A DNA stretch of 24,400 nucleotides, from NCBI GenBank assembly GCA_964451945.1, contig CAYVKQ010000004.1, positions 1 to 24,400 on the forward strand. Direction: 5' to 3'. Positions 3,694-24,235 of this stretch are shown here, piece after piece. Under the pieces are notes generated by a model. The model searched no databases and was not told the origin of the DNA. It saw only the letters and a program-made list of their open reading frames with translations. Both the position numbers and the translations under genes were made by a program. The number at the start of each line of letters is the position of its first letter. Position 1 is the first letter of the stretch. The DNA comes from an uncultured Lentisphaerales bacterium (GTDB taxonomy: Bacteria; Verrucomicrobiota; Kiritimatiellia; RFP12; JAAYNR01).

Positions 3694-3905
3694 TTGTAAA
3701 TGAGCATCTAGACGCATTTTCAGGCTTGTTCATAAGCCGTCAATAACCGGTAAACAGCGCGACGGCGCAACCGGCGCAACAACAACGGCAGACAAATTAT
3801 CGGCATTTGTAACCAATTGCCTTACAATGATTTACACACTACAAGCCGCTTCTTTATATCGATACATAAGGCGCGAGTCACGTTGTGAACACGCCGTGCC
3901 GGAGT

Positions 3906-3914
3906 TGTGCATAA
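3906..3914 (-). promoter_or_regulatory. DnaA box (TTATGCACA)
   Basis: tgtgcataa on + is TTATGCACA on -, a perfect match to TTWTNCACA. A one-mismatch box (ATTTACACA) lies at 3830-3838 within an AT-richer stretch. Confidence 0.5.
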
Positions 3915-3950
3915 CCCGTCCCGCCCTTCCACTGCTTGCAGGCAAAAGGA

Positions 3951-4241
3951 GTTAGGCGTTAGGCATTGCGTTAGGCGCTGGCAGACGGCGTTGGGCGTTG
4001 AACGTTGAACGTTCGGCGGCGGGCGTTCGCGCCCGATCTCCGCTCTCGCCGCCCGACGTCCTAAAAGAAGCAGTTCTCGATCCGTGATCAGGCGCGGTTG
4101 CGCGGTTGCGCCGCAGGAAACGGTTGGGTAACAAGACACGAGGACAACATCGAGACCTCAACGTTACCGCTCAACGACGAACGCTTGACGCCTACCATCT
4201 AGCTACCCAGCCCAGCGTCTAGCCCCTAAAGCGCCTAACGC
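3951..4241. repeat. Degenerate long inverted repeat built from heptamer units (GTTAGGC/GTTGAAC)
   Basis: The left arm 3951-4013 has gttaggc x3, gttgggc and gttgaac x2. The right arm 4158-4241 has complementary units. gcgttaggcgct (3968-3979) pairs perfectly with agcgcctaacgc (4230-4241), and aacgttga (4001-4008) with tcaacgtt (4158-4165). Confidence 0.6.
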
Positions 4242-4288
4242 CGGATCACGAACGGCCAGCAATTCTCATTATGACGCGGTTGGGCCCT

Positions 4289-4366
4289 CGGTATCGGGGT
4301 CGGTATCGGTATCGGGGTCGAAAAGCCTGTGTTTGGTCGATGCCGATACCGACCCAGACACCGATA
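4289..4366. repeat. REP-like imperfect palindrome of hexamer units (CGGTAT/CGGGGT x5 ... ATACCG-type x4)
   Basis: cggtat cggggt cggtat cggtat cggggt cga (4289-4321), then a 15-nt loop, then tcg atgccg ataccg acccag acaccg ata (4337-4366). Confidence 0.8.
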
Positions 4367-4426
4367 GGTACACCTCCACAATTAGTGCCTTACAAACCAA
4401 CAACAGCAATAAAGAACAAGTTCTTG

Positions 4427-4501
4427 CACCACGAAGGCACGAAGAGCACGAAGTTTTTTAATGACTCGCTCCTTCTTCGTGTCCTTCGTGACTTCGTGGT
4501 G
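4427..4501. repeat. REP-like palindrome (CACGAAG x3 / CTTCGTG x3)
   Basis: caccacgaaggcacgaagagcacgaag (4427-4453) is the reverse complement of 4475-4501 with 3 differences in 27 bp; the loop is 21 nt. Confidence 0.88.
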
Positions 4502-4591
4502 AGAATTTCGGGTTGCGGGCGCGGCCCGCGTTAGAATTGCTGCACGGACGGCGCTGGACGAAAACACCCGCAGCACGTTACCATACCGGCA

Positions 4592-7041: not shown

Positions 7042-8757
7042 ATGTGGCGGTTTTCCCGTCGCGGCGTTTGCCGGGCAGGGTGTTTGATCGGCCTTCTTCT
7101 TGTGTTTCCGGCGGTGGCGCAGCGGTACGACGAGGTGGTGATCACGGCCGCAGACTACAAAAACCTCGACACGTTCGAGACGGCGGCGCTGGCCAAGGCC
7201 GACAAGGTTTTCGCGGCCAAGGACTACCGGGCCGCCACGGCCGAATACGACCTCTTCCTGGTCGAGAACGGCCGCTCCTCGGCGGCCGCCTACGCCTTGC
7301 TGCGCAAAGGGCGGAGCCAGATGCTCGACAACAAGCGCTACGAGGCGGTGCGGACGTTCAAGGAGGTGATCGACTATTTTCCCGACGCCGTGCTGTACGC
7401 CGCCGCCGCGCTCTACTACCAGGGCCAGTGCCACTTCGAGAATGGCGAGCAGGCCAATGCGGTGAAGGTGTGGCAGAAGATGGTCGCCGATGCCGAATAC
7501 GCCAAGCACGCTCTTGCCGCGCCGGCGCTGCTGGCGCTGGCGAACGAGCTGGCGCGGCAGCAGAAGACCGCGGAGGCGGCTTCCTACTACGAGCAAGCGG
7601 CGGTCGAGTTCCGCACCAAGAACCCCGACGTGGCGCGCCAGGCGATCGGCAAGGCCTGCGAGATCCACATCCGGCTGCTGCCCAGCGAGAAGAAGATGAA
7701 GGATTTCTACCTGCGCGCCCGGACGACGCGCCACCATCCCGACAACGCGCCCGACGAAAACAAATACTGGGCCGACGTCCGCGCGATGATCCACCGCTTT
7801 GCCGCCGGGTTCGCCGCCGAGGAGAAGTCGCGGCGGGCCGCCTATTTCAAATACTGGGCCGACGCGATGGAGGGGAAGCGGCTCACCGACAACGCCTTCC
7901 GCATCGACTGGGCCTACTTCCGCCTGCAGCACGAGGACGATGCCGACGCCTGGGTCGGGCGGCTCGACAAACAGTTCGCCGACACCTTCAAACCGGGGGA
8001 CTACGCCCAGGTGGTGCAGTTCATCCAGGCCTTCGGCAAGCAGAAGGAGAAAGTCGGACAGTACTACGCCAAGCTCGACTTCGCCAAGATGGAGAACGCG
8101 CTGATCGACCGCCTGGTCCGCGCCCTGGTCGAATCCAACGAAGAGATGGCGATGGCGCGCAACGCCTGCGACAAGATCAACCACGAGCGGTGGAACGACG
8201 ACGACCGCAACCGTTTCATCGACTGGGTGCAGTACCGCGACCGCGAGATGGTCGAGATGGTCTGCCGGCGGATGAAGGATCCCGACTATGGCAAGTACCG
8301 CCTGCTGCGCTATTACCATTGGCAGCGGATCGCCGACAAGGGGCTGCCCCTCGCCGACGAGGTCGCGACCGTGCCCAAGTACGCGGGGGAAGCCTACTAC
8401 ATGAAGGGCGAGCTACTGGAGCACAGCCAACGCTGGGCCGACGCCATCCAGGCCTACAAAGCCTCCAACCGCGAGCCCGACAGCCTGTTCCGCATCGCCG
8501 AGTGCATGCGCCGCCTGAAGCAGACGACGCAGGCGATCGCGCAGCTGCGCGAGATCGAGAATTTCTTTGAGCCTCAGGCGCCCGAGGCGGCGCTGCGCAT
8601 CGCGTGGATCTACCGCGACGGCAAAGAGGAGAAGCAGTTCATCGCCGCCTTGCGCGGCATTCTGAAGAAATACCCGCGCAGCGGGCAATCGAGTACGGCG
8701 CACTTGGAGTTGGAGCGCCTGGGTGTCAAAATGGGTGGAGGAGTCGATGCAGACTAA
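7042..8757 (+). CDS. Secreted tetratricopeptide-repeat protein (BamD/CpoB-like TPRs)
   Basis: The ORF opens at 6871. ATG 7042 follows AGGG and gives a signal peptide (MWRFSRRGVCRAGCLIGLLLVFPAVA-Q). N- and C-terminal TPR pairs are visible (AAYALLRKGRSQ...YFPDAVLYAAAALYYQGQCH; EAYYMKGE...DSLFRIAEC...KYPRSGQS). Confidence 0.85.
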   Translation: MWRFSRRGVCRAGCLIGLLLVFPAVAQRYDEVVITAADYKNLDTFETAALAKADKVFAAKDYRAATAEYDLFLVENGRSSAAAYALLRKGRSQMLDNKRYEAVRTFKEVIDYFPDAVLYAAAALYYQGQCHFENGEQANAVKVWQKMVADAEYAKHALAAPALLALANELARQQKTAEAASYYEQAAVEFRTKNPDVARQAIGKACEIHIRLLPSEKKMKDFYLRARTTRHHPDNAPDENKYWADVRAMIHRFAAGFAAEEKSRRAAYFKYWADAMEGKRLTDNAFRIDWAYFRLQHEDDADAWVGRLDKQFADTFKPGDYAQVVQFIQAFGKQKEKVGQYYAKLDFAKMENALIDRLVRALVESNEEMAMARNACDKINHERWNDDDRNRFIDWVQYRDREMVEMVCRRMKDPDYGKYRLLRYYHWQRIADKGLPLADEVATVPKYAGEAYYMKGELLEHSQRWADAIQAYKASNREPDSLFRIAECMRRLKQTTQAIAQLREIENFFEPQAPEAALRIAWIYRDGKEEKQFIAALRGILKKYPRSGQSSTAHLELERLGVKMGGGVDAD

Positions 8758-10957
8758 ACAGAGCATGCGGGTTTGGGGGCGCCTTCTCACGGCAGCGGTG
8801 TGCGTCGCCGCAAGCGTGGCCGCGGCCCAGGGGGACGCCAAGGGACGGGCGACGGCTTCGGCGGCGGGCGACCTGGAGGCGCGCCGGCTGCTGGACCGCG
8901 CGCAGGAGCTGCTGCAATCGGGCGAGCGCGAGCGCGGCGTCAAGATGATCGAGACGGTCCTGGAGCAGTACCCATCGAGCCGCATGATCTACCCCGCCTG
9001 CCTGGCGCTGGGCAAGCACTTCATCGAGGCGAACCAGCAGGTTCTGGCCATCAGCCACCTCAACCGCCTCAAGGTGCTCGAACCGGCCGACGGTCTGGCG
9101 CAGGGCGGGGACCGCGAGCTGTTCCTGGAGGCGATGTACCTCATCGGTGTCGCCTACTTCCAGACGCGGCAGTACAACATGGCCTTCCCCGTGCTCCGCC
9201 ACATCACCTCCAAATATCCCAATTCGGTCTGGGCCAACCAGGCCCACTACTACATCGGGATGTGCCATTTCTCCCAGCAGAACTGGAACAAGGCGATCGA
9301 GGCCCTCAGCCTGGTGGGGACGTTTGTCGACCCCGACAGCCCGACCACCGCCTATGCCGAGGCGGGGCGGCGCTTCTACGTCAAGGTCGAAGACCCCGAT
9401 TTCCCGGTGCTGCTGGCGCTCGGCAAGAAGGTCATGGTGACGCTGACGACCGGCCGCGGCGACAAGGAGGAGATCGAGTGCATCCCTCTCACGGCCGACG
9501 CGACGGTGGTCATCGGCTCGATTCCCACGGCGATCGGCGCGGCCAGGCCCGGCGACCGCATCCTCCAGGTGATCGGCGGCGAGGAGGTGACCACGTCCTA
9601 TGTCGACGAGAGCACCGAGGCGGGCGAGACAAACGTAGGCCGCGCCTCCAAGGTGCGGGTGGTCTCGACCGGCCTGCTCGACTTCATGCTGGGCGATTTC
9701 GACGCCCGCGCGGCGGCGGCCTTCCTCGGCCAGCCGCTCTTCATCCAGTTGCTCGACGTCGATCTGGACGCCAGCGACCAGGCCGAGACGCGCAGAATGA
9801 CCGTCCTGTCGCGCTACAAGTACCGCTCCGAGGACGACGACCAGTCGGCCTTCACCGACGAAGGCGCGCTGCGCTACGAGACGCGCGACCGCGTGGAGGT
9901 CGTCCTGACCGAGCAGGGCGCGGCCCCCATCCGCAGCGGCCGCTTCACCGGCAAGGTGGCCGTCGAACTCGCCCAGGAGAACCAGCCGATCGACCAGGCC
10001 GACAGCGTGCTCGCCTGCCTCGTGGGCGACGAGATCGTGATCTCCTACACCGACGAGCTGCACATCGGCGGCGAGACGCCGCGCGTGGTCGAAGCCGCGA
10101 TTCCGGTCGTCGGCGAGGTCGACAACCGGCCGCGCGCCACCCAGGACGTCGTCTTCGATCCCGTGCTGCGGGCGCGCAAGAACCTGGTCGAGGCGACCGC
10201 CTATCTCGAATTGGCCCGCATTTTCCACAGCATGGGGCTGATGAAGGGGACAAAGGAGAAGACCGTCGAGGGCCTGTCCCGCGTCGAAGCGGTGATCCGG
10301 GCGCGCAACCAGGACGTCTCGGCCGACATCAAGCAGGAGGCGTTCAAGCTCAAATGGGAGCTGCACATCGAGGCCGAGGAGCTGAACGCGGCGCTCTCCA
10401 CCTGCAGCCTCTTCAGCCAGCTCTACCCGCAATCGCCGCTGGTCGACCAGGCGCTGATGGGGATCGGCAGCATCCGCATCGAAAGCCGCGACTACGACGA
10501 AGCCATCCGCATTTTCCGCCAGATCACCACCCTCAAGCATTCGGAGGCCAAGGCCGAGGCGCAGTTCCGCATCGCCCAGACGATCGAGCTGCAGGATGAG
10601 GCATCCACCAAGAAGGGGCAGCTGCTGAGCCGGGCGATCCAGGAGTACAAGACCTGCGCCGAGCGCTATCCCGAGAGTCCCTATGCGGGCGAATCGCTGG
10701 CCAAGCTGATCGACTACAACATTTCCAAGGGCGATTTCTCGCAGGCCAATTCCCTTTTGGAGCAGACGTTCCAGGACTACCCGGACGCCTCGTTCCTCGA
10801 CAGCATGCTGATGAAATGGGTTCTGGTCGCCTACCAGTCGGGCGATTTCGCCAAGGCCAAGGAGAAGTGCAACAAGCTGCTCTTCGAATACCCGGAAAGC
10901 CGCCACGCCGAGACCGCCCGCCAGGTTCTGCCGCGGATCGAGGCGCGCCTGCAATAA
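8747..10957 (+). CDS. Secreted TPR protein with two central beta-rich repeat modules
   Basis: Strong SD GGAGGAG (8737-8743) before ATG 8747, an 11-nt overlap with the upstream gene, a signal peptide ending VAAAQ, many YP(x)S TPR turns, and a beta-rich middle at 9365-10056. Confidence 0.88.
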   Translation: MQTKQSMRVWGRLLTAAVCVAASVAAAQGDAKGRATASAAGDLEARRLLDRAQELLQSGERERGVKMIETVLEQYPSSRMIYPACLALGKHFIEANQQVLAISHLNRLKVLEPADGLAQGGDRELFLEAMYLIGVAYFQTRQYNMAFPVLRHITSKYPNSVWANQAHYYIGMCHFSQQNWNKAIEALSLVGTFVDPDSPTTAYAEAGRRFYVKVEDPDFPVLLALGKKVMVTLTTGRGDKEEIECIPLTADATVVIGSIPTAIGAARPGDRILQVIGGEEVTTSYVDESTEAGETNVGRASKVRVVSTGLLDFMLGDFDARAAAAFLGQPLFIQLLDVDLDASDQAETRRMTVLSRYKYRSEDDDQSAFTDEGALRYETRDRVEVVLTEQGAAPIRSGRFTGKVAVELAQENQPIDQADSVLACLVGDEIVISYTDELHIGGETPRVVEAAIPVVGEVDNRPRATQDVVFDPVLRARKNLVEATAYLELARIFHSMGLMKGTKEKTVEGLSRVEAVIRARNQDVSADIKQEAFKLKWELHIEAEELNAALSTCSLFSQLYPQSPLVDQALMGIGSIRIESRDYDEAIRIFRQITTLKHSEAKAEAQFRIAQTIELQDEASTKKGQLLSRAIQEYKTCAERYPESPYAGESLAKLIDYNISKGDFSQANSLLEQTFQDYPDASFLDSMLMKWVLVAYQSGDFAKAKEKCNKLLFEYPESRHAETARQVLPRIEARLQ

Positions 10958-10990
10958 CCTCTCGATATGTCCACCCAGGAGAAACCACGC

Positions 10991-13900
10991 ATGAAACACA
11001 TCCTCCTCGCCGCCTGCATCCTCGGTTCCGTCTGGACCGCTTCCGCCCAGGCGCCCGCCGCGCCCGCCGCACCCGCCGCCGCGGAAGACCCGCGCCTGAC
11101 CGCCTTCAACGAACTGCTGACGCGGGCGCAGCGGTCCACCGACGGCCTTTCGGTCGAAGAGATGACCAGGCTGCTCAACGAGGGGCGCGACCTCGGCCGG
11201 CCGCACCCCGTTTCGGGCATCGCACGCAGCTTCCTCTCGCGCCACCCGAATCCGGCGCCGACGGTTCTGCGCCTGGCGGCGCAGAACGCCATGCTCACCG
11301 GCGACTACCGCCTGGCCGCCTCGCGCTACCGGCAGTACTTCCGCAACGTGCCGGTCTCCGCCGAATCCTCCCAGGCCGCCGCCGAGCTGTTCTGCCTGCT
11401 GACCGACTATACCAAGCAGGTCGACGACGCCTTCGCGGCCAATGCCGACTACGGAGACAAGTACCGGCAGGCGCCGCAGGCCAGGCAGTATGACAGCTGG
11501 TTCCTCGAGCGGTGCTGGGACCGCCGCGCCACCGGCGCGATGGCCAAGCGCCTCGCCTCCATCTTTGCCGAAAAGCTCCCGCTCGAGCAGGAGCGCTACG
11601 CCTACTGGCACCATCTGGACCGGCTCATCGAGCGCCTCGGTTCGGTCATCCCCGAAAACACGGACGCCATCCTGCCGGGGCGGTCCATCATCCCGCTGAT
11701 CCGCGAAGACGCCGTCCGCGCGGCCCGGCTCGGCTTCTTCATCGACAACCTCGCCTTCCACGCGGCCCGCGCCGGCAAGGAGGCGGCTGCCCTCGCGCGC
11801 GAGTTCGAGCCGGTGCTCGCCTCGGCCAAAGCCTATCTCGACCAGGCGCCGACCGAGGCATCCCTGCGCCAGATCATGGCGGCCTTCGGCGGCGGTCCCG
11901 ACCGTCCCGACGAGTCGGTGTGGAACACGATGGCCGACAAGAAGCGCGACTTCTTCTTCTCCTACGCCTTCGGCAAGCTCCCCGAAGCGGAGCAGGTCCG
12001 CTTCCTGAACTGGGATTGGTGGGCGATGCCCGCCCGCCTGGCCACCCCCGAGCAGTGGATCACCCTGGGCGGCAAGCATCCGCAGGCGTTCACCAAGGCG
12101 GCGGGGATCTACCGGCTGCCGTGGGTCACGCAGACGACCAACGCGCCGCTCTACAAGGCGCAGGCCGCGTTTCTGGCCGGCGCCACCTTCGACGCCGCCG
12201 CCGTCATCACCGCCCTTGCGGCGGCCGGCGACGTGAACGGCTCGGTGCAGCACCTGCTGACCCAGTCGGCCTGGAGCATGCCGTTCGCCGACCGCGGCCG
12301 CGGCAACGCCGAGACGTTCCCGGACCTGGTCGTCAACCAGATCATCCCGGCGCGCGCCAATCTGCGCGGGTTGAGCGGCGGGGAGCGCGACGCATTCGTC
12401 TACGATGCGCAACTGGCGTTCATGGACGGTCCGTTCTGCAGCAGCGTGGCCACGCCCTTCTCGCCCAAGTCGGTCAGTTTCCTGCTCCGCAGCGTCTGGG
12501 GCTACTGCAGTCAGGACGCCGCCCGGCGCGACCGCTACGTCGCCCTCCTCGGCAAGCTGGCGTGGGTGCCGTTCGTCGGCGAGAAACGCGAAAAAGTGTT
12601 CGAGCCGGCGCTTACCGAGTTCCGCCGCTGGGCGCAGGAGACGCGCCGCCAGTTCGACGGACTGGCCGGCAAAACCGACGAGGCGTCGGTCAAAGCGCGC
12701 AAGGACCTGGAGGCGGTCGTCGCGCAGATCGCCAAGATCGAGGAGGCGTTCAAGCAGGCGGTCGAGACCGATCCCGACCCGGCCAAGGCGCCCAACCCGC
12801 AGTGCCGCGACCTCGCGGCCGCCATCAAGGCGCAGGAAGCGGGCGACGCCGCCGCCACCGCCACCGCCGCCAAGGCGCTCTACGCGCCGATCCGCGAGTA
12901 CCAGAAGAACAAGACGCCGTTCGGCGAGGCGCTGCTCGGCTTCCTGATGACCCCGCGCGACGCCAAGCTCGCCTGCGAAGAGGCGCAGGTCGCCACGCTC
13001 GCCGACCAGATCGGGCTGCGGCTGGGCACGCCCGCCTCCGTGCGCGGCGCCCGCGAATGCGTGCGCCAGTTCTCCGCCCGCGCCGGCTGGCGGTTCGACT
13101 GGACCCTGCGCCCCAGCAAGGAGGACGACGCCCTGCGCGATCAGATCGCCGACGTGCTGGCCAAGGCGATCGAGGCCCGCACCGCCAAGGACCAGTGGGA
13201 CGGCGAGCTGTTCACCTGGTACCGCGGCGTGGTCAAACAGGAGAGCGAGCAGGCGCAGGCGCTGGTCAGCGCGCTCATCGAGCGCGACATCTTCACCAAA
13301 CAGAACGTCAGCCTGTGGCACCCCGGGCCGACCTGCAGCGCCATGGCCCTCATCCGCAACGAATTTCCGTCGCTGCGCGAGAAGTACCCGGTCGAAACCT
13401 GGTTCGACGACCGCATGGTGGACGAGATCAGGCGCACCGGCAAGGTCGACGACGCCTATTGGAACTACGGCCACGACCGTCTGAAAAAGGTGGCCAATGC
13501 CCTGGCGGAGCGCTTCACCGCCGACATTTCCTACACCTTCGTCGGCACGCCGGCGGCGCCCGCCGTCTACTCGCGCGACCAGTTCAACGCCCTCTCGTGG
13601 CGCGTGCTCAACGCCGACGCCCCGCTCGTCGGCGCCTACCTGGACAAGATCCAGGCGGCCTACGGTAAAACCCGCTTCGACCGCCCCGCCTCCGGCGCGG
13701 TCGCGATCACCCAGATGTCGGCCGACACCCCCGAGGGCCGCAAGGCCTTCTTCGACCGGGTGCGCGACTACACGGCGCGCGCCAAGGCGATGCCCTACGC
13801 CATCGGCCTGCCGACGCTGCCGCAGCTCAACAACCTGTCGATCGACGGCACCACCCCGCTCACCGACGCGGAACTCGCCGCGCTGGCCGAGTGCTTCCGC

Positions 13901-16900: not shown

Positions 16901-19069
16901 AGCCGCATCTTCCCGGTGGCCGGCGAGCCGAAGCGGCCCACCGAAATAACGGTCGCCTCGGGCGACGACATCCAGATCGTCTACCGCGACGAGAAGAATA
17001 CCGACTACGGCATCCCGTGGGACCGCAGCTACACCCTCGAACAGGCGGCGCCCACCCCCCCCGAGCTGCGCGTCTTCACCTACGACTCGCGCCTGCTCGC
17101 CTCCAACGAACTGGCGGCTGTCGCCGCGCGGATGCCCGCCGTGGCGACGGGTGAAGTGGTGCCGATCACCCGCACCCTCAATGCCGTCCGCCCGGTGAAA
17201 CCGAAACCCGACACCCCCCCCGTGACGCTGCTCGGCGCGCCGCTGATTGTCGAACTGCGCCATCCCTCGCTGGCGATCTCGCCGCTGAGCGAGGCCGAAT
17301 TGGTCGTCCAGACCTCCGCCGCGCGCAAGCAGGCCGGCGTCGCCGAAACGGCGCCGTTCGACCCGTCGCTGCCGGGGACCATCCGCTACCGCATGGGGAT
17401 CGTCGACCTGCGGATGCCGAAGGCGCCCGAAGGCTACGAGAAGATCAGCCTCGTCGGCAACCCGTTCGCCATGGATCCGCTGGAGGACGGACGCTTCTCG
17501 TTTGTCATCCCGACGGTCCTTGGCGGCCTGGCCGATATGGACACCTCCACCGAAGTCGATGAGCGCCAGTACCGCATCGATGACGAGAACGTCCACGTGG
17601 TGCCGGTCGCCTGCCTCACCGACAAGGGCGACCCGCGCTCGATCCGCCGCTTGTACAAGCTGCCGCCGCTCCACGTCCGGCCCGACGACACGGTCCGCAT
17701 CGCGGTCAACACCGCCGGCCCCAAGGAGCCGCCGCAGTGGCAGGTCCAGGATGTCTCCTTCACCGCCGACACCATGCTCGACGTGATGGACCAGCGCTAT
17801 CAGAAGACCGTCGACGCCTTCCATGTCGGCGAGCGCCTCTACCTGCGCGTGATCGATCCCATGGCCGACAAGAGCGGCGACAAGGACAGGATCTCCCTCT
17901 CCCTCCTGGTGAACAGCGCCCCCGCGGACGCCAAGCCGGTGGAGCTGACCGAGACCTTCGAATACACCGGCGTCTTCAAGGGCAACGTCCAGCTGGTCTA
18001 CGAGGGGGTGAAGAACGAAACCCCCGCGTCCGACGCGCTCGCCGTCCCCTACGGCGCCGCCGTGTCGCTCAAGTACGCGCCGCGCGAAGGGATCGTCGTG
18101 GAGTGCCAGGTGGCCGTGCGCAAGGGCGCCGACGGCGAAGTGCTGCCCTTCACCAAACGGTTCCAGGACACCGAGATCGCCGTGCAGACGCAGTTCACCA
18201 TGGCCGAGGCCTACTTTGAAATGGCCAAGAAGCACCGGGCGCTGAAGGAGGAAGAAGTCGCCCGCCGCGGCATCGCCCAGGGGAAGAAGCTGCTCGAGGA
18301 GGCGATCCGCGACTATCCCAAGACCGACGCCCGCGTGCAGGCCGACTACCTGCTCGCCAACCTCGCCTTCGAGGAGGCGGAGCAGACGGAGAACGAGGAT
18401 CTGCGCAAGAAGCTCTTCGTCGAGGCGATCACCCGCTTCAGCGACCTGATCGCCGGCTACCCCGACAGCGAGTACGCGCCGAAGTCGCAGTTCAAGAAGG
18501 CGCTCGTCTTCGAACGGATGGGCGAAATCGACGCGGCGTGCGAGGAGTACGTCAAGCTCTCCTACCGCTACCCGGAGAACGAGCTGGTCGCCGAGACGAT
18601 CGCCCGCCTAGGTCAGTATTTCATGACCAAGGGCAAGGAGATCGAAGAGCGCCTCGGCGCCGAGACCGACCTGGTGCAGAAGGAGAAGATCCGGATGCAG
18701 GCCAACGAGTTCTACCGCACGGCCGCGCAGGTGTTCTCGCGCCTCGCCGAACGCTTCCCCGAGCACACGCTCGCCGCCAAGACCCGGGTCCTCTCCGCCG
18801 AGAACTGGCTCCGCGGCCAGGAGCTGAAGAAGGCGGTCACGGTCTACGAGGCGATCATCGCCGACAAGAAGGTTCCGCCCGAACTGGTCGCGCAGTCGAT
18901 GTATTGGTGCGGCGACAGCTTCCTCCGCATGAAGAATTTCACCGACGCCTACCGCATGCTCAAGCGGCTCACCTGGGACTATCCCGAAAGCGTGTGGGCG
19001 AAGTACGCGCGCGGCCGCCTGACCGAGCCCGAGCTGGCCCGGATCGAGGAAATGGAGATGAAGGAGTAA
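10991..19069 (+). CDS. Giant (~2,692 aa) secreted protein: helical N-half, TPRs, repeated beta-modules, F5/8 type C-like and PA14-like domains, C-terminal TPRs
   Basis: SD AGGAG at 10977-10981 before ATG 10991 (10967 is an alternative). Signal peptide MKHILLAACILGSVWTASA-Q followed by an APAAP linker. Uninterrupted 8-kb frame with strong C/G-ending codon bias. Confidence 0.9.
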   Translation: MKHILLAACILGSVWTASAQAPAAPAAPAAAEDPRLTAFNELLTRAQRSTDGLSVEEMTRLLNEGRDLGRPHPVSGIARSFLSRHPNPAPTVLRLAAQNAMLTGDYRLAASRYRQYFRNVPVSAESSQAAAELFCLLTDYTKQVDDAFAANADYGDKYRQAPQARQYDSWFLERCWDRRATGAMAKRLASIFAEKLPLEQERYAYWHHLDRLIERLGSVIPENTDAILPGRSIIPLIREDAVRAARLGFFIDNLAFHAARAGKEAAALAREFEPVLASAKAYLDQAPTEASLRQIMAAFGGGPDRPDESVWNTMADKKRDFFFSYAFGKLPEAEQVRFLNWDWWAMPARLATPEQWITLGGKHPQAFTKAAGIYRLPWVTQTTNAPLYKAQAAFLAGATFDAAAVITALAAAGDVNGSVQHLLTQSAWSMPFADRGRGNAETFPDLVVNQIIPARANLRGLSGGERDAFVYDAQLAFMDGPFCSSVATPFSPKSVSFLLRSVWGYCSQDAARRDRYVALLGKLAWVPFVGEKREKVFEPALTEFRRWAQETRRQFDGLAGKTDEASVKARKDLEAVVAQIAKIEEAFKQAVETDPDPAKAPNPQCRDLAAAIKAQEAGDAAATATAAKALYAPIREYQKNKTPFGEALLGFLMTPRDAKLACEEAQVATLADQIGLRLGTPASVRGARECVRQFSARAGWRFDWTLRPSKEDDALRDQIADVLAKAIEARTAKDQWDGELFTWYRGVVKQESEQAQALVSALIERDIFTKQNVSLWHPGPTCSAMALIRNEFPSLREKYPVETWFDDRMVDEIRRTGKVDDAYWNYGHDRLKKVANALAERFTADISYTFVGTPAAPAVYSRDQFNALSWRVLNADAPLVGAYLDKIQAAYGKTRFDRPASGAVAITQMSADTPEGRKAFFDRVRDYTARAKAMPYAIGLPTLPQLNNLSIDGTTPLTDAELAALAECFRYCRWTGWNGTEERLMTLIHSGFAARGRFGELLPLIPEMWRVAYEQNRRETMLLLSDFTSKLMESGAAIAAATYSVTGLEVAGDRLPEDIRNSLTALRTKSQAEAGGGLLVERSDRRYPILAAQALFHAGRLDSAWEHYLQAPQLALSEYKDLDLGFTIWLVERRTTMGQFDQADELARTLIQWIDAAPQGFDPETRTQMLIAYADIAFARQEYPRARAQYERVAVAREFAGTFGAKRAELKIAEVDRLTRHYDAAYERLDKLDRQRDTAIQAEARYQMALLKFDQEDYAGARDAINRVFAIAPSHPQAGLLEGELNVRTKKLVEATELKIGLSADQQTLIPGRPLRVGLEDRTLAVVGKTTDIEIRVWTDSGDEEVFMLLPFGDSKTKFRGEIATALAPTKKGDRLLQVLGRDKVHYGFSERFRKAAGIGAVETVTVEVITDPELYASSGRILSREELEEKALEQMIRQRERIEEERNAPLSTVRAANEVKPGNPIYVRVVDPDRSGTPQKDKVVIRASSSSGDAVQRFEIEETETHSGVFEGRLPTASASATAFASDTEEGRQANYVIAADPNLPPWVALGDKNRNKLFTVDLNNNLTLGSLSLLADVTGRAIKRFAVQTSMNGSDYTTVATWPADMPAWDAALRIRMVRYGGRNAAPANLKMFKEYFAYGHVVQDAPMVVAEGKTSADLRQTIRTAEKELQMGRTAWVLAHVQGTFYVPERRKRTFRLDPKNRLQNVKYILAIDGAEGPSPLEHPVSLAKGYHTLDLYAAVHLNTQAAYELLWDIAEDPYMARVPETAFTAAEWDKETPPAGFTPAKLTPNEAGTKFAIAFASNTTARLVRFGICDFESDAPAIRKIGLTGADGKVLLPAAEDVLALRNNQILEIVPGDRVTIAYEDPSVITRERQNTETFLSATFYNAEVGAYFVETVVDPYDNVRRPLFVPMRRYQAGEPVTVFVQDPDADETEENDSVVFHVRTTAGKQIEVKAVETDKHAGMFASRIFPVAGEPKRPTEITVASGDDIQIVYRDEKNTDYGIPWDRSYTLEQAAPTPPELRVFTYDSRLLASNELAAVAARMPAVATGEVVPITRTLNAVRPVKPKPDTPPVTLLGAPLIVELRHPSLAISPLSEAELVVQTSAARKQAGVAETAPFDPSLPGTIRYRMGIVDLRMPKAPEGYEKISLVGNPFAMDPLEDGRFSFVIPTVLGGLADMDTSTEVDERQYRIDDENVHVVPVACLTDKGDPRSIRRLYKLPPLHVRPDDTVRIAVNTAGPKEPPQWQVQDVSFTADTMLDVMDQRYQKTVDAFHVGERLYLRVIDPMADKSGDKDRISLSLLVNSAPADAKPVELTETFEYTGVFKGNVQLVYEGVKNETPASDALAVPYGAAVSLKYAPREGIVVECQVAVRKGADGEVLPFTKRFQDTEIAVQTQFTMAEAYFEMAKKHRALKEEEVARRGIAQGKKLLEEAIRDYPKTDARVQADYLLANLAFEEAEQTENEDLRKKLFVEAITRFSDLIAGYPDSEYAPKSQFKKALVFERMGEIDAACEEYVKLSYRYPENELVAETIARLGQYFMTKGKEIEERLGAETDLVQKEKIRMQANEFYRTAAQVFSRLAERFPEHTLAAKTRVLSAENWLRGQELKKAVTVYEAIIADKKVPPELVAQSMYWCGDSFLRMKNFTDAYRMLKRLTWDYPESVWAKYARGRLTEPELARIEEMEMKE

Positions 19070-19072
19070 CCG

Positions 19073-19480
19073 GTGACGCCGCACCGCCGCATTCCCGACG
19101 CCCTGCCGCCGCCGGCCGCGCAGCCGCTCGCGGCCGACGAGGCCGTGCGCCTGCTCGGCAAGCGGCGCGCCGCCCTGCTGCGGCGCGACGCCGGGGGCGA
19201 GGCGGTCCTGGCGGTGATGCCGACGGGCAGCGCCGCCGATACCGGGAGCTGGTTCGGCAAACGGCGCGTCTGCCTGGCGTTCACGCCGACGGCGCTGCTG
19301 CTCTTCGCCACCGGGCCGCGGCCGCTCTGCCGGCGCATCCCCTTGACGGAACTGCGGCAGACGCAGTACAACACGGTCACCGGAGAATTGGTTTTTGCAC
19401 CGGCCAGCGTGCCGGTGCGGGCAGTCGCCCTGCCGCCGCTGGAGGCGGCGCGGGCGTTGGCGCAACTAGGAAGGGGTTAG
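19073..19480 (+). CDS. Small hypothetical protein (135 aa)
   Basis: GTG start 6 nt after AAGGAG; it fills the gap between the giant gene and exbB with 3-nt spacing on both sides. The C-half has a globular-looking core (GSWFGKRRVCLAFTPTALLLFATG...YNTVTGELVFAP). Confidence 0.7.
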   Translation: MTPHRRIPDALPPPAAQPLAADEAVRLLGKRRAALLRRDAGGEAVLAVMPTGSAADTGSWFGKRRVCLAFTPTALLLFATGPRPLCRRIPLTELRQTQYNTVTGELVFAPASVPVRAVALPPLEAARALAQLGRG

Positions 19481-19483
19481 GTT

Positions 19484-20143
19484 ATGTTGGATACGATTAT
19501 TGCGGGCGGACCCTTGATGATCATCCTGATGATCGAAAGCGTGCTGGCGATCGCCGTGGCGCTCGACCGCGCGGCGGCCTTCCGCGCGAACGGCCGCGTG
19601 GACGTCCGGTCGCTCCGCACCAAGGTGCAGAACCAGATGCTGGAGTCCAAATACGACGAGGCGCTGGCCGCCTGCCTGACGACCCCCGGCCCCGTCTCGG
19701 CGGTCATGGCCTCGGGCCTGCAGGCGTACCTCAAGCACAAGGCGGTCACCGGCAACGCCGAAACCCTGCGCGCGATCGTGCAGGACGCGATGACCGACTA
19801 CGCGCGCCTGGCAATCAACACCGTCGAAAAGCGGATGAACATTCTCTCGTTCATCGGCACCTCGGCGCCGCTCTTCGGCATGACCGGAACTGTGACCGGC
19901 ATGATCAAATCGTTCAACGCCATCGCCTCCGCCGGCGCCATGGAGGGCGGCGTGGTCGCCGCCGGCATCGCCGAAGCGCTGATCACCACCGCCGCCGGCC
20001 TGCTCATCGCCATGATGGCGGTCATCCCGCACCACTACTTCACCAGCCGCTCGGAGGACATCGAGATCCAGATCGCCGAGGCCGGCTCCGAAATCCTGGA
20101 CCACATCTCATTGACCCATCACGCCGCCGCCGCGACCGCGTGA
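19484..20143 (+). CDS. MotA/TolQ/ExbB proton channel family protein
   Basis: N-terminal TM (GGPLMIILMIESVLAIAVALDR), a cytoplasmic loop, then TM2-TM3 IGTSAPLFGMTGTVTGMIKSF...GIAEALITTAAGLLIA, the family signature. Confidence 0.95.
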   Translation: MLDTIIAGGPLMIILMIESVLAIAVALDRAAAFRANGRVDVRSLRTKVQNQMLESKYDEALAACLTTPGPVSAVMASGLQAYLKHKAVTGNAETLRAIVQDAMTDYARLAINTVEKRMNILSFIGTSAPLFGMTGTVTGMIKSFNAIASAGAMEGGVVAAGIAEALITTAAGLLIAMMAVIPHHYFTSRSEDIEIQIAEAGSEILDHISLTHHAAAATA

Positions 20144-20162
20144 GGGCGGAGCCACGCGCGCC

Positions 20163-20579
20163 ATGCCGTTCGAACCCTTCAAGAAAGAGAAGCAGGAGAG
20201 CACGGTTCCGACCGATTCGCTGTCGGATATCGCGTTTTTGCTGATCATCTTCTTCATCCTGGCCACCTCGATCCAGAAGATCGCCGGGTTCCGCACCGAC
20301 CTCCCCTCGGGCGAGCGCAACCAGCAGGTCCAGAAAGCCGACGACAAGACGCCGACCGTCGGGTTGAAGGGCGGACGCATCCTGTACAACGAGCAGGAGT
20401 CGACGCTGGATGAACTCCGCAAGAAGCTGGCGCTGCTGCGCCTGCTGGAACGGGCCGAGGACCGCCGCGTGGTGCTGCTCGACGCCGCGCCCGACACCGC
20501 CTACCAGACCTACTACGAGGTCATGGCCGCCATCACCGCCGCCCACGGGGTGATCGGCATCCTGACGGAGGAGGAATGA
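20163..20579 (+). CDS. ExbD/TolR family protein (copy 1)
   Basis: TM with the conserved Asp (SLSDIAFLLIIFFIL), followed by a periplasmic domain ending VVLLDAAPDTAYQTYYEVMAAITAAHG. Confidence 0.92.
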   Translation: MPFEPFKKEKQESTVPTDSLSDIAFLLIIFFILATSIQKIAGFRTDLPSGERNQQVQKADDKTPTVGLKGGRILYNEQESTLDELRKKLALLRLLERAEDRRVVLLDAAPDTAYQTYYEVMAAITAAHGVIGILTEEE

Positions 20580-20580
20580 G

Positions 20581-20997
20581 ATGAAACTCCACCGCAGGCG
20601 GAAGAAGGCAATCTCGGTGCCGACCACCAGCATGGGCGACATCGCCTTTCTTCTCATCATCTTTTTCATGGTGTGCAGCAACTTCGTCAAGGAATCGGGC
20701 ATCAAGGTGGCGCCGCCGCTTGCCGACGACATCGATTCGGTCAAGAACGCGCCGCTGTCGGTGGTGATCGACGAGAACAACGACATCCACGTCAACGGCA
20801 AACCGGTCTCCAGCGGGATGGCGGTGGAGGCGATCGTCGAGTCGGCGGTGGAGGGAAAGACGACCGACGAGGAGCGGATGGTGCTGTTCAAGTGCGACCG
20901 CAGCGTCGCCAAGACCGTCTTTGAACCGGTGCTCGAAGCCATCACGCGCGCCGGCGGGATGCTGGTGGCGGTGGGCGAGAAGCGCGCCGAAAACTGA
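20581..20997 (+). CDS. ExbD/TolR family protein (copy 2)
   Basis: SD GGAGGAGG; TM SMGDIAFLLIIFFMV with the conserved Asp; C-terminal VLFKCDRSVAKTVFEPVLEAITRAG. Confidence 0.92.
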   Translation: MKLHRRRKKAISVPTTSMGDIAFLLIIFFMVCSNFVKESGIKVAPPLADDIDSVKNAPLSVVIDENNDIHVNGKPVSSGMAVEAIVESAVEGKTTDEERMVLFKCDRSVAKTVFEPVLEAITRAGGMLVAVGEKRAEN

Positions 20998-21015
20998 TCG
21001 GGAAAGGGTGAAGCG

Positions 21016-21468
21016 ATGACACAAAACAAGAATCCGACCACGCAGAATCTGGACCGTCTGCTGACGATCTTCTCCGGCAGGCGCATCGCCTTCTGGATCG
21101 TTGTCGCGCTCGCCGCGCACGTGGTGCTGATCGGCGGCTGCTCGCTCAATACCATCCGCGACCGCTGGATCGACCCCGAAGGGGCGGCGCAGCGCAAGGC
21201 CGCCGCGCTGGCCGAACAGCAGCGCCTGGCCAAGGAGGCCGCGGCCGCGGCCGCCCCGGCACTGGCGGGGCTGACCAACGCCGCCGCCGTGGTGCGCGAC
21301 GTCAACGCGCCGGCGGCCACCAATGCGGCGGCCGCTCCCGGCGCCATCCCCGCCGAACGCACCAACACGCCGACCGCCCAGCGGGTCACCGAGGTCGCCA
21401 AACCCGAAGAGATGCCGAAGCTCGGCAACGATCTCGGCATCTCGATCGAGGACACCGGCATCCGTTGA
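21016..21468 (+). CDS. Single-pass membrane protein with His in the TM and an Ala/Pro-rich extension (mini TonB/TolA-like; hypothetical)
   Basis: Hydrophobic segment IAFWIVVALAAHVVLIGG, then a helical AAQRKAAALAEQQRLAKEAAA stretch and an Ala/Pro/Thr-rich tail; purine-rich SD upstream. Confidence 0.75.
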   Translation: MTQNKNPTTQNLDRLLTIFSGRRIAFWIVVALAAHVVLIGGCSLNTIRDRWIDPEGAAQRKAAALAEQQRLAKEAAAAAAPALAGLTNAAAVVRDVNAPAATNAAAAPGAIPAERTNTPTAQRVTEVAKPEEMPKLGNDLGISIEDTGIR

Positions 21469-21518
21469 GCCCTCCCGGCGCGGACCGCCAGCGCGCGATT
21501 CCCGCCGACAGCCGCACC

Positions 21519-23099
21519 ATGGACAAACGTCTCCAATTTTCCTGGCCGCCGATCCTGTGCCTCCTCATGGGCATGGCGGCGGGCGTGTGCACCCGTTTCG
21601 CGCTCGTGCTGCCGCGGGCCTACCTGGTGTGGTGCGACCGGCACCCCGCGATTGCGCGGGTCTTCGCCGAAGAGGGGGTCGATCTGTTGATCCGTTTCAC
21701 GGCGGGGGTCGCCGGACTCTCGGCGGCCGCCCTCGCGGTCATGGCGTTTGTCGCCCTCTTCATCCGCAGCGCCACCACGCTCGGCCTCTTTCGCAAGACA
21801 TGCCTCCTCTTCTACGCCACGGCGTGGATGTGCGGCGTCGTGGCGGTGCGCGCGACCCACCTGCTCATCGCGCGCGAACTGAGCCTCGGCGGCGCGGACG
21901 GCGAGCCGTTCAACGCCTACACCATCTTCCTCCTCCGCTGGCGGCTCCTCTGGCCCGTGATCGCCGTCTCGCTCGGAGTCGCCTATCTCTACATCCTCGC
22001 GTGGCGCCGCGCCGCGATCGACGACTGGCTGGGCGGCGGCGGTCCGTCCGAACCCGCCACCGGCGACCGCTTCCTGGAGAACCTCCGCACCCACGGCCGC
22101 GACCCGCGCTTCCGCAAGAGCGTGTGGTCGAGCGTCGGCGTCCACCTGTTCGTCGTCCTGATCCTCCCCTGGCTGCTCACCCTCGACGGCTGCACCCGCA
22201 TCAACCCCTACGGCGTCCCCAAGGGGAGCGGCACGCCCACGGTCACCGCCCCCAAGATCGTGAAGGTGAAGAAAAAGAAGAAGCGGATCCTGGTCAATCC
22301 CAATTCTGCCATCCTGTTCAACATCCCCACCCTCGACGACTCCAAAATCGCGGAGGAGGTTGACCAGGAGTCGCGCGTCACCTATGCGGCCGACCCGAAC
22401 CGCGTCGGCGCCATGGGCGCGGGCGGCGGCACGGGCGGCGGCTGGCCCGACGGCATGGACGACGCGGTGGTCCGCTTCATCCGCCTGAAGTACGACGGCT
22501 CCGGCTGGGACGACGGCATGGACGCGGTTTCCCGCGCCGACATGAACTTTCTCGACATGTTCCGCAAGGTCACCAAGTTCCGCACCGCTGCGCAGTCCGA
22601 GAGCCACCCGATCGCCGCGCTGGCCAAGTACCCCAAGGGGTTCGCGCCGCCGTTCGTCTACATGACCGGCGACTACGACATCCGCGTCGCCGACAGCGAC
22701 GTAAAGATCCTGCGCGAGTACCTGATGGGCGGCGGCATGCTCTTCGCCGACTGCGGCAGCCCCCGCTGGAACCACAGTTTCCGCAGCTTCATCCGCCGCG
22801 TCTTTCCGGGCGAGTCCCTGCTGACCGTCTCCGACGACGACGTCATCTTCCAGATCCCCTACACCTTCGCCAACGGCGCGCCGCCGCTGTGGCACCACGG
22901 CGGCTATGACGCCATGGGGATCAAGTACAAGGGGCGCTGGGCCGTCTTCTACCATCCCGGCGATGTCAACGACGCCTGGAAGAACGACCGGGGCGGACTC
23001 GAACCCAAGAAGGCCGAAGGGGCGATGGAGTTGGGAATCAACATCATCTACTACTCGTTCTCGAACTATCTCGAACTGACGCGGAAGTACCGCAAATGA
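21519..23099 (+). CDS. Polytopic membrane protein with C-terminal DUF4159 domain
   Basis: About 4 N-terminal hydrophobic helices, a fifth TM (SSVGVHLFVVLIL), and a Lys- and Gly-rich linker. The C-terminus shows the DUF4159 pattern IRLKYDGSGWD...PFVYMTG...LREYLMGGGMLFAD...FRSFIRRVFP...VFYHPGDVNDAW...LGINII. An alternative TTG start at 21465 overlaps the upstream stop. Confidence 0.88.
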   Translation: MDKRLQFSWPPILCLLMGMAAGVCTRFALVLPRAYLVWCDRHPAIARVFAEEGVDLLIRFTAGVAGLSAAALAVMAFVALFIRSATTLGLFRKTCLLFYATAWMCGVVAVRATHLLIARELSLGGADGEPFNAYTIFLLRWRLLWPVIAVSLGVAYLYILAWRRAAIDDWLGGGGPSEPATGDRFLENLRTHGRDPRFRKSVWSSVGVHLFVVLILPWLLTLDGCTRINPYGVPKGSGTPTVTAPKIVKVKKKKKRILVNPNSAILFNIPTLDDSKIAEEVDQESRVTYAADPNRVGAMGAGGGTGGGWPDGMDDAVVRFIRLKYDGSGWDDGMDAVSRADMNFLDMFRKVTKFRTAAQSESHPIAALAKYPKGFAPPFVYMTGDYDIRVADSDVKILREYLMGGGMLFADCGSPRWNHSFRSFIRRVFPGESLLTVSDDDVIFQIPYTFANGAPPLWHHGGYDAMGIKYKGRWAVFYHPGDVNDAWKNDRGGLEPKKAEGAMELGINIIYYSFSNYLELTRKYRK

Positions 23100-24235
23100 T
23101 CGACAAGCTTGTGCCAGTCATGGGGGCGTGGGGCGTCCGGGCGCTGATCGTCTGGGTCGCGGCCCTGGTCGTCCTGTTGTTCGGGAGCTTCATCCGCGCC
23201 CGCCCCAAAGCCTACCTGCTCGCCCTGGCGCTGGTGGTGGCGGCGGCCTTCTGCGCCCGCAGGAATCTGGACACCTGGTTCGCGTCCATCCGGCTCGACC
23301 GCACCGACGAGATCAACGCTGCGCTGGCCTCCCGCGCGCCGCAGGAAGGGCTCGCCACCGTCGTACGCTTCGCCGAGGACGATCCCGAAGACCGCGTCGA
23401 GGGCGGCGTGACCCGCACCGCTCCGGCCGTCCCCGCCTGGCGCGAGGGCGGACCCAAGGCGCGCGGCGGCGGGGTGTTGACCAACGCGGTCGCCGGAGCC
23501 GCCGCCGCCGACGGCACGGCGGCCGACCCCGCGGCGGGCGGGGAGGCGGTCATCTACATGAAGGGCGACCAGCTCAGCCTCGTCCGCCAGATCGAGCGCG
23601 GCAACCGCCTGATAATCCGCGCGCTGACGCTGCTGATCGTGCTGGCGATTCTCTACGACTATGTCACGGCCTTCAATTCCGTGCGTAGCACGCGGCTGGC
23701 GCTGCCGCTCTCGGGGGCGCTGATCGACAGCCTGTCCGCCAAGTCGCGGGCGCTGATGATCCGTCCCGACGTCGGCAAGCGCTGGCGCCCCGAGCCCTTC
23801 CTCGAACGCGCCGTGCGCAAAGGGGAGAACGTGGTCTACTTCGGCCAGAAGCCGATCTGGGAGGGGCGCGCCTCGCTGCCGCGGCTGGTGCTCATCGGCC
23901 TGCCGCTCCTTCGCGTACCGCTCCTCCGCTACGGCGCCCCGGGACAGCCGACGGGGAGCGAGTTCGCCTTCGACGCCGCCTGGTTCAGCCGCTATGTCGT
24001 GACGGCCGCCGGCGACGCCCCCTGCCGCGCGATGCTCGAAGACTTCGTCGACATTCTGCACGAGCGCCGCCGCTCCGGCGCCCGCGCCCGCCGTACGCTG
24101 GTTCTCGCCTGGGACCGCGACGAAACGCTGGAGAAGCCGTTCCTGGTGACGCTGGCGAAACTCGCCGACGAGGCGAACCTCTCGCTCTTCGTCTGGACCC
24201 GCCCCGCCGGCGGCGGCAAGCCGGCAACCGCCTGA
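23096..24235 (+). CDS. Hypothetical membrane protein (3 predicted TMs, low-complexity linker, C-terminal alpha/beta domain)
   Basis: ATGA overlap with the DUF4159 gene stop; hydrophobic helices ALIVWVAALVVLLFG, AYLLALALVVAAAF and LIIRALTLLIVLAILY; codon bias similar to the rest of the operon. Confidence 0.8.
   Translation: MIDKLVPVMGAWGVRALIVWVAALVVLLFGSFIRARPKAYLLALALVVAAAFCARRNLDTWFASIRLDRTDEINAALASRAPQEGLATVVRFAEDDPEDRVEGGVTRTAPAVPAWREGGPKARGGGVLTNAVAGAAAADGTAADPAAGGEAVIYMKGDQLSLVRQIERGNRLIIRALTLLIVLAILYDYVTAFNSVRSTRLALPLSGALIDSLSAKSRALMIRPDVGKRWRPEPFLERAVRKGENVVYFGQKPIWEGRASLPRLVLIGLPLLRVPLLRYGAPGQPTGSEFAFDAAWFSRYVVTAAGDAPCRAMLEDFVDILHERRRSGARARRTLVLAWDRDETLEKPFLVTLAKLADEANLSLFVWTRPAGGGKPATA

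Follow-up and report, generated by a model that had tools for sequence, protein, structure and literature searches.

A ten-gene operon of a Kiritimatiellia bacterium probably encodes a proton-motive-force-driven envelope machine distinct from the Ton and Tol systems

The Ton and Tol-Pal systems are the two textbook routes by which energy from the inner membrane reaches the outer envelope of Gram-negative bacteria. The Agl-Glt gliding machinery of Myxococcus xanthus comprises AglR/Q/S (one TolQ-like and two TolR-like subunits), the TonB-like proteins GltG/J and the tetratricopeptide repeat (TPR) proteins GltD/E. Bacteria of the Planctomycetota-Verrucomicrobiota-Chlamydiota (PVC) group play a large part in the breakdown of complex glycans in oceans, soils, digesters and guts, and they take up very large substrates while having few TonB-dependent receptors. 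For PVC bacteria, a further class of motor loci was described by Williams-Jones et al. (Mol Biol Evol 2025; PMC12204202), who traced the evolution of TolA and TonB in silico, starting from the Kiritimatiellia species Tichowtungia aerotolerans. [quoted passage not shown] The vWA transducers were modelled to bind the motor's rim by means of a conserved His, and the authors speculated on gliding as the function of the loci. In this work, we analyzed a 24.4-kb window (the whole stretch of DNA under study, which is an entire contig of a metagenome-assembled genome (MAG) of 3.65 Mb and 85% completeness from an uncultured Lentisphaerales bacterium), in which ten genes on the + strand at positions 7042-24235, downstream of mnmE and then mnmG, encode an ExbB-like protein, two ExbD-like proteins, three TPR proteins, a DUF4159 protein and three further proteins referred to here as s135, s150 and m379. 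Our results suggest that this operon probably encodes a dedicated envelope machine of PVC bacteria that is driven by the proton motive force (PMF) and is distinct from Ton and Tol. The operon is not categorically new, since it belongs to the Ton/Tol/Agl motor kind and is a sister of the loci described in silico in 2025; what appears to be new is that a Ton/Tol-type motor is coupled to new transducers, one a headless tether and the other with a DUF4159 head, and to a TPR scaffold that totals about 4,000 residues. The description of this machine as uncharacterised in the original prediction therefore still holds for experiments, but it has to be qualified by the in silico description of the sister class.

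The operon shares with the PVC vWA loci the lineages in which it is found, an upstream TPR gene, and one tolQ-like gene accompanied by two different tolR-like genes. Both also encode, behind these genes, a membrane-anchored protein of TonB/TolA-style layout, in which a His-containing helix predicted to contact the motor is followed by a conserved short motif, a disordered stretch and a head other than that of TonB. In contrast to the vWA loci, the head is DUF4159, with no vWA chain among its top structural matches, s150 is headless, and the DUF4159 carrier has five helices instead of one; furthermore, the operon adds s150, a PH-like protein, m379 and a giant protein of 2,700 amino acids (aa). 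The spacings between the ten genes, measured in order, are -11, +9, +3, +3, +19, +1, +18, -4 (or +50 from an alternative ATG) and -4 nucleotides (nt), in agreement with the ten co-oriented genes with gaps or overlaps of -11 to +50 nt that had been noted from the sequence alone. Within the cluster, a consensus scan detected + strand terminator-like sites at a level not above that expected from shuffled sequences, and no promoter-like site was found by such a scan.

The motor subunits were assigned when the ten proteins of the operon were scanned against Pfam and NCBIfam. ExbB (19484-20143, + strand, 219 aa) matched MotA_ExbB (PF01618) at 2.3e-26 and scored higher with the TolQ model (98 bits) than with the ExbB model (69 bits), both values being under the equivalog cut-offs. 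Its transmembrane (TM) motifs APLxGMTGTVTGMI and GISEALITTAAGL were kept across 66 sequences. ExbD1 (20163-20579, + strand) and ExbD2 (20581-20997, + strand), each of 138 aa, matched ExbD (PF02472) at 7.3e-15 and 4.7e-16, respectively, and the TM Asp was kept in at least 95% of the sequences for both of them, within S-D-IAFLLIIFF in 69 sequences of ExbD1 and within SMGDIAFLLIIFF in 71 sequences of ExbD2. Judged by their sequences, ExbD1 and ExbD2 are separate orthologous groups, as they are ~23-32% identical to each other and each has its own orthologue in every locus. The one ExbB/TolQ-like and the two distinct ExbD/TolR-like subunits predicted here carry the defining residues of the 5:2 proton motors.

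The gene for s150 (21016-21468, + strand, 150 aa) occupies the position where tonB or tolA follows exbD or tolR. In an alignment of 42 sequences (A2), s150 has a single TM helix in which His35 and Ser43, eight residues on, are invariant (42/42), while the residue at position -4 from His35 is Ala in 36 sequences and Ser in 6. The helix is followed by a conserved motif, YIRDxWIDPEGA, by a spacer composed of Ala/Lys/Glu and then Ala/Pro/Thr, and by a strongly conserved acidic C-terminal tip (...ITExAxPxEIPxxPDDLGISIxDTN). With neither a TolA or TonB model match nor a folded C-terminal domain, s150 looks like a TolA or TonB protein whose globular head was replaced by a short strand-forming peptide.

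The second putative anchor is the DUF4159 protein (+ strand, 21519 to 23099 from an ATG, 526 aa, or 21465 to 23099 from a TTG, 544 aa, the TTG start overlapping s150 by 4 nt). It matched DUF4159 (PF13709) at 5e-30, and its structural model (predicted local distance difference test score, pLDDT, of 78) contains five long helices, which correspond to five TM helices, a disordered linker and a folded head. In an alignment of 18 sequences (A1), the fifth TM helix (TM5) follows the TonB-type pattern S-x3-H-x6-L-P, in which Pro(+8) is invariant and Ser(-4) and His are each present in 12/18 sequences. TM5 is preceded by a conserved loop predicted to be cytoplasmic, ENLRTHGxDPxxRxS, and it is followed by PYxIPKGSGxP, a run of Lys, ~80 disordered residues and the DUF4159 head on the periplasmic side. 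Both s150 and the DUF4159 protein are thus predicted to carry anchor helices of the TonB/TolA style. The head was most similar to PDB entry 4i66, a DUF4159 structure from structural genomics (Foldseek 6e-9, VIA Z 23.3), whereas GATase1-like folds reached a Z of 8-9 only. A function as a glutamine amidotransferase was considered for the head and rejected, because the position of the nucleophile Cys is not conserved (FADxGG, mostly Asn). The model of the DUF4159 protein gave only meaningless helical MukF matches (TM-score of about 0.1) in a fold search of AFDB Swiss-Prot, and our literature search found no functional study of DUF4159. The TM part of this protein, as well as s135, s150 and m379, had no family match, even in Pfam at a low threshold.

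These anchors bear on the relationship of the operon to the Ton system, with which it shares the 5:2 family of motors and, encoded downstream of exbD, an anchor helix containing a His, and from which it differs in that neither a TonB C-terminal domain nor a TonB-dependent receptor is encoded in or near the cluster. None of the ten operon proteins matched TonB_C, TonB-dependent receptor, TolB, OmpA/Pal or peptidoglycan-binding domains in Pfam and NCBIfam; the absence of a receptor barrel, TolB, Pal/OmpA and a canonical TonB C-domain had been claimed before and is borne out by these scans. One could argue that the operon belongs to an ordinary Ton system, with TonB and receptors encoded elsewhere in the genome, and that its extra genes are unrelated passengers. 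The genome contains three TonB-dependent receptors, all on contigs other than that of the operon, versus one TonB_C protein, and motors can in principle be shared. However, this sole TonB_C protein adjoins its own ExbB on another contig (C42), the order of the presumed passenger genes behind the motor is kept across several phylum-level lineages, and two of the passengers carry TonB/TolA-style anchors of their own. We consider an ordinary Ton system highly improbable.

The operon is similar to Tol-Pal with CpoB in its TolQ/TolR-like motor, in the Ala/Lys/Glu-rich TolA-like anchor and in CpoB-like TPR modules; unlike Tol-Pal, it has no TolA domain III, TolB or Pal, it has two TolR-like genes, and the TPR proteins it encodes exceed that of Tol-Pal 2- to 10-fold in size and contain beta modules. 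All three TPR proteins have a signal peptide, namely TPR1 (7042-8757, + strand, 571 aa, ...PAVA followed by Q), TPR2 (8747-10957, + strand, 736 aa, ...VAAA followed by Q) and the giant (10967 or 10991 to 19069, + strand, 2,700 or 2,692 aa, ...ASA followed by Q). The TPR_6, YfiO and tol_pal_ybgF models matched all three, and the best-scoring models for each were CpoB (YbgF) and BamD. With TIGR02795 tol_pal_ybgF, for which the cut-off is 90.1 bits, TPR1 scored 92.1, TPR2 94.3 and the giant 69.6 bits, these CpoB/YbgF matches being at the level of domains within far larger proteins. TPR1, which consists of CpoB/YbgF- and BamD-like repeats (TPR_6 at 8.7e-21), has orthologues of 47-57% identity in four relatives. 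TPR2 (OM_YfiO 83.9 bits, YfiO 2e-14) is made up of an N-terminal TPR, a central region of beta modules and a C-terminal CpoB/BamD-like TPR, and its orthologues within the order are 54-62% identical. In the giant, a helical region without a recognised type (residues 1-1,100) is followed by a central TPR (~1,150-1,600), by beta modules with a weak discoidin-like (F5/8C) insert (~1,400-2,430) and by a C-terminal CpoB/BamD-like TPR (2,430-2,700). The insert corresponds to a weak F5_F8_type_C match (E 0.0014, ~residues 1,530-1,610) and to an F5/8C cluster at 0.86 among language-model features, which is a lead only. The conservation of the giant is highest in the central and C-terminal TPR blocks, the latter with a mean column identity of 54% in 46 PVC sequences, and lowest at residues 1,600-1,800, so that the weak discoidin signal sits just ahead of the least conserved stretch. 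A search of PDB sequences with the N-terminal and beta regions of the giant returned nothing below an E of 0.5.

From these results, it could be proposed that the operon is a Tol-Pal-like paralogue for envelope maintenance, in which the motor and the TPR proteins coordinate outer-membrane tethering or peptidoglycan remodelling during growth or division and have no part in transport. This proposal draws on motor subunits that score best with TolQ/TolR and on TPR proteins that score best with CpoB (YbgF)/BamD, two of them above the YbgF cut-off, with the TPR blocks being the most conserved parts. A precedent is found in E. coli, in which CpoB binds TolA and regulates PBP1B. However, a canonical TolQ-TolR-TolA-TolB-Pal system coexists with the operon in this genome and in every cluster-bearing relative that was checked, no Pal, TolB or peptidoglycan-binding domain is encoded in the cluster, and the patchy occurrence of the cluster described below (about 13%) is more in keeping with an accessory trait than with a core function of the envelope. 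We therefore regard this proposal as unlikely. In the assembly, the Tol-Pal genes are divided between two contigs: TolQ (318 aa), TolR and a TolA-like protein extend to the end of C342 (L025:46-2238, - strand), and the last 59 residues of TolB and Pal, followed by HflX, are found on C382 (L026:2379-3142, - strand). In the relative G010, the genes for TolR-TolA-TolB-Pal-Pal are contiguous, and TolB-like genes (about 240-250 bits) with an adjoining Pal were found in all five cluster-bearing relatives that were tested. The idea that the operon substitutes for a missing Tol-Pal was rejected, in Kiritimatiellia at least, because of these Tol-Pal genes in this genome and in the five relatives, and thus the simplest explanation of the operon is removed. 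Since separate Ton and Tol-Pal loci coexist with it, the operon would be a further, third motor system.

The genome contains seven MotA_ExbB loci, and some of those that belong neither to the Ton nor to the Tol-Pal genes also combine motor and TPR genes. On C200 (L028:181-5867, - strand), a 1,305-aa YbgF-like TPR protein (TIGR02795, 177.7 bits) is followed by ExbB and two ExbD before the locus is cut by the contig end. In the orthologous loci of G004, G003 and G010, the next gene encodes a protein of ~450-465 aa, with a weak VWA_2 match in G004 (E 1.6e-4). Judging from these sequences, the C200 locus probably is of the published vWA-transducer type, and the window operon would therefore be paralogous to it and represent a distinct class. 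Downstream of a third ExbB-ExbD-ExbD set, on C22 (L029:13674-17222, - strand), a 549-aa protein is encoded that has weak matches of the squalene-cyclase/pectate-lyase-like (alpha/alpha toroid) kind and may be another non-canonical motor partner. In addition, on C50 (L031:6143-10804) the gene for an 886-aa TPR protein comes before those for ExbB, a single ExbD and a protein of 269 aa that belongs to no family, and C49 (L030:8562-12432) encodes a 348-aa ExbB and then a 794-aa TPR protein, with no adjoining ExbD called.

The gene order of the cluster is very strongly conserved. Three genomes from the same family have all ten genes in this order, and in them the cluster is again located after mnmG. 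In two other families of the order, colinearity extends over the whole cluster, except that TPR1 was not detected in G014, and a third family retains the half from s135 to m379. In G014, the expected place of TPR1, upstream of TPR2 and on the same strand (L022:580-4529), is taken by genes for a second DUF4159 protein, of 556 aa, and for a 760-aa PKD/PA14 protein. When one genome per prokaryotic species was scanned, at least 521 relatives of the DUF4159 protein were found, and the best 80 of these, on which the wider synteny count is based, were all from PVC-labelled MAGs (Kiritimatiellia, Lentisphaeria, Victivallales, Verrucomicrobiae, Opitutales, Pirellulales, Planctomycetia and Phycisphaerae). 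When these 80 loci were searched by tblastn, giant-s135-exbB-exbD1-exbD2-DUF4159-m379 were found in this order wherever the flank sufficed, and s150 was recovered in the closer loci only. Of five distant PVC genomes, four have TPR2 immediately upstream of the giant, and the remaining one has it a short way upstream. By these sequence comparisons, the nine-gene core from TPR2 to m379 would be colinear in essentially every one of the best 80 PVC loci with enough flank, which bears out the conserved synteny that had been expected. Within the class Kiritimatiellia, 26 of 201 sampled genomes (about 13%), or 22 of the 167 of high quality, contained a member of the m379 family. Across the phylum, 17 of 301 sampled genomes had a DUF4159 orthologue (E<=1e-25). 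Because of this patchiness, as seen from the sequenced genomes, the cluster is taken to be an accessory system.

In the flanks of the 47 loci with downstream sequence, no TonB-dependent receptor, TonB, TolB or Pal recurred, nor did an outer-membrane barrel family. The expectation that no such Ton or Tol-Pal partner lies just outside the cluster is thus supported, and the genome's own copies are on other contigs with their own motors. No downstream family was widespread among the loci, and the most common one was a protein of ~1,350 aa with DUF6288 and HEAT repeats, which was encoded on the same strand as m379 in 10 of the 47 loci (L107:4473-8531 and about nine other Verrucomicrobia-labelled loci). 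Such a follower cannot be seen in this genome because the contig stops 165 nt past m379. Other downstream neighbours include a sulfatase, a LamG lectin, PKD/PA14 proteins, a second DUF4159 protein and housekeeping genes.

These flanks are also relevant to the comparison with Agl-Glt, which at the sequence level was made for the motor families. The operon and Agl-Glt are alike in combining one TolQ-like with two TolR-like subunits and in having large TPR proteins in the periplasm, and they differ in that no outer-membrane Glt barrels, TonB_C-type GltG/J or AglZ/MglA module are present in the cluster or recur in its flanks. By analogy with Agl-Glt, the operon might encode a machine for surface motility or adhesion, as the stator has the same composition (one ExbB-like and two ExbD-like subunits), the TPR proteins are large and periplasmic, and gliding was speculated for the sister vWA loci (PMC12204202). 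However, outer-membrane barrels, TonB_C proteins and coupling genes of the AglZ/MglA type are missing in and beside the cluster. Furthermore, gliding is, to our knowledge, not a known trait of most carriers. We consider an Agl-Glt-like machine very unlikely.

Two genes of the operon encode putative cytoplasm-side components. s135 (19073-19480, + strand) is a small protein without a hydrophobic helix, and it is here that the earlier inventory has to be amended: three signal-peptide TPR proteins, ExbB/TolQ, two ExbD/TolR and DUF4159 were all recovered by Pfam, NCBIfam and the translations, while this tenth gene encodes a soluble protein instead of a membrane protein. s135 was found directly upstream of exbB in 48 loci and carries the motif YNxVTGELV. 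Language-model features placed it with unnamed Verrucomicrobiota clusters (0.97) and with bPH_3/bPH_1/GRAM clusters (0.90-0.93), again as a lead only, and it probably is a cytoplasmic bacterial pleckstrin homology (PH) domain of the bPH/GRAM-like type. m379 (23096-24235, + strand, 379 aa) is a three-helix membrane protein, the model of which (pLDDT 85.5; predicted template modelling score, pTM, 0.76) has three long helices and a C-terminal alpha/beta domain. Residues 189-379 weakly resembled DndH-C, TrwB, HerA and TdpAB (VIA Z 8.5-9.4), and Foldseek matches to TcpA, RecA and FlaH had E-values of 0.03-0.08; no match was obtained in Pfam or, below an E of 0.5, among PDB sequences, and there was no meaningful language-model neighbour. 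An active ATPase was considered for m379 and rejected, since a Walker A motif is missing and the invariant residues do not fit P-loop positions. From the model, the C-terminal domain probably is a cytoplasmic, catalytically dead module. Among 1.84 billion representatives, the family comprises 387 clusters at 50% identity, 296 of them at E<=1e-30, and these searches depict m379 as a sharply bounded orphan family specific to the operon. The 379-aa protein of the window represents the common length form (median about 390 aa); in the same-family relatives G003, G004 and G006, the orthologues are 637-718 aa long due to an insertion between the conserved halves.

A mechanism can be proposed for the PMF-driven machine that we favour. 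A heterodimer of ExbD1 and ExbD2 would turn inside an ExbB pentamer, powered by proton flow, and the rim of the pentamer would be bound by the His-bearing helices of s150 and, in most lineages, of the DUF4159 protein (TM5), with the conserved post-helix motifs acting in rim binding as analogues of the "motor box". The torque could then be converted to pulling or winding of the long linkers of the anchors. The acidic C-terminal strand of s150 and the DUF4159 head may dock on the conserved TPR blocks of the scaffolds, the force might remodel a periplasm-spanning TPR assembly, and the variable discoidin-like part of the giant would face the ligand or substrate. s135 and m379 might regulate the machine or assist its assembly from the cytoplasmic side.

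Several results weigh against parts of this proposal. The TM5 His is absent in 6 of the 18 orthologues of the DUF4159 protein, and TM5 may therefore not be a TonB-type motor contact everywhere. Prediction of a complex of s150 (residues 45-150), the C-terminal TPR of the giant, the periplasmic part of the DUF4159 protein and the C-terminus of TPR2 gave a score of 0.00, which speaks neither for nor against binding, so that the docking steps are purely inferred. The discoidin signal of the giant is under the family thresholds, genes for sulfatases and lectins are common neighbours throughout these phyla, and no outer-membrane partner or substrate was identified among the operon and its flanks. 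For the last reason, of the self-contained PMF machine that had been suggested, the machine is supported while its being self-contained is not provable.

Among PVC loci of this broad kind, MUL1 of Akkermansia muciniphila alone offers, by analogy, a genetic hint of function. In that species, as reportedly found by Davey and colleagues in 2023, mul1A (Amuc_0544) is a mucin-transport gene whose disruption in a transposon mutant blocks the use of mucus-derived host glycans. An annotation table has Amuc_0544 in one gene run with Amuc_0546 (ExbD/TolR), Amuc_0548 (MotA/TolQ/ExbB) and hypothetical-protein genes, and a later paper likens MUL1 to Sus-type uptake and states that MUL1 synteny is absent from aquatic Akkermansiaceae. 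MUL1 is similar to the operon in that it is a PVC-group locus with ExbB/ExbD genes beside hypothetical-protein genes, a likeness at the level of annotation. As MUL1 synteny is reportedly absent from aquatic Akkermansiaceae, while window-type operons are present in MAGs labelled Akkermansiaceae, MUL1 and the operon probably are different members of the same broad kind.

With respect to the role of the machine, we tentatively put forward that it captures large glycans or glycoproteins or imports them into the periplasm, with no TonB-dependent receptor involved. The weak F5/8C signals, the occasional sulfatase, LamG and PKD/PA14 neighbours and MUL1 provide a lead to this possibility. Envelope or peptidoglycan remodelling is a less likely role, and surface motility or adhesion is an improbable one. 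A more specific version of the first role, which we hold to be doubtful, is that the operon encodes an energy-coupling device for receptor-independent "selfish" uptake of large polysaccharides or glycoproteins into the enlarged periplasm of Planctomycetes, Verrucomicrobia and allied bacteria, in which the headless tether and the DUF4159 arm would pull the giant TPR/lectin scaffold and thereby reel the substrate inward, with MUL1 as a distant cousin. If this were true, the envelope machines with a 5:2 motor would comprise, in addition to Ton and Tol, a third functional class, represented by the operon. Regardless of the role, the operon is a concrete candidate for an envelope function in PVC phyla that would widen the output repertoire of 5:2 motors, and it would give a first functional context to DUF4159, to the orphan family of m379 and to a PH-like motor partner.

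Upstream of the operon, the window begins with an open reading frame on the + strand (2-2278, 758 aa), open at its 5' end and with a weak match to the Kdo/WaaP lipopolysaccharide-kinase family (E 4e-5), which overlaps the start of mnmE by 4 nt. The 0.9-kb gap between mnmE and mnmG (3694-4591) has a lower G+C content (0.62-0.65), and its sole content is a 105-aa open reading frame on the reverse strand without a family, with no tRNA or Rfam match in the gap; no RNA genes were found in the window as a whole. Two sequencing runs labelled metatranscriptomic contained scattered contigs of 151-297 nt with at most 9 mismatches, which were flagged as "probably DNA". The sequence of this organism was matched in metagenomes from bioreactors, wastewater, digesters and the pig gut.

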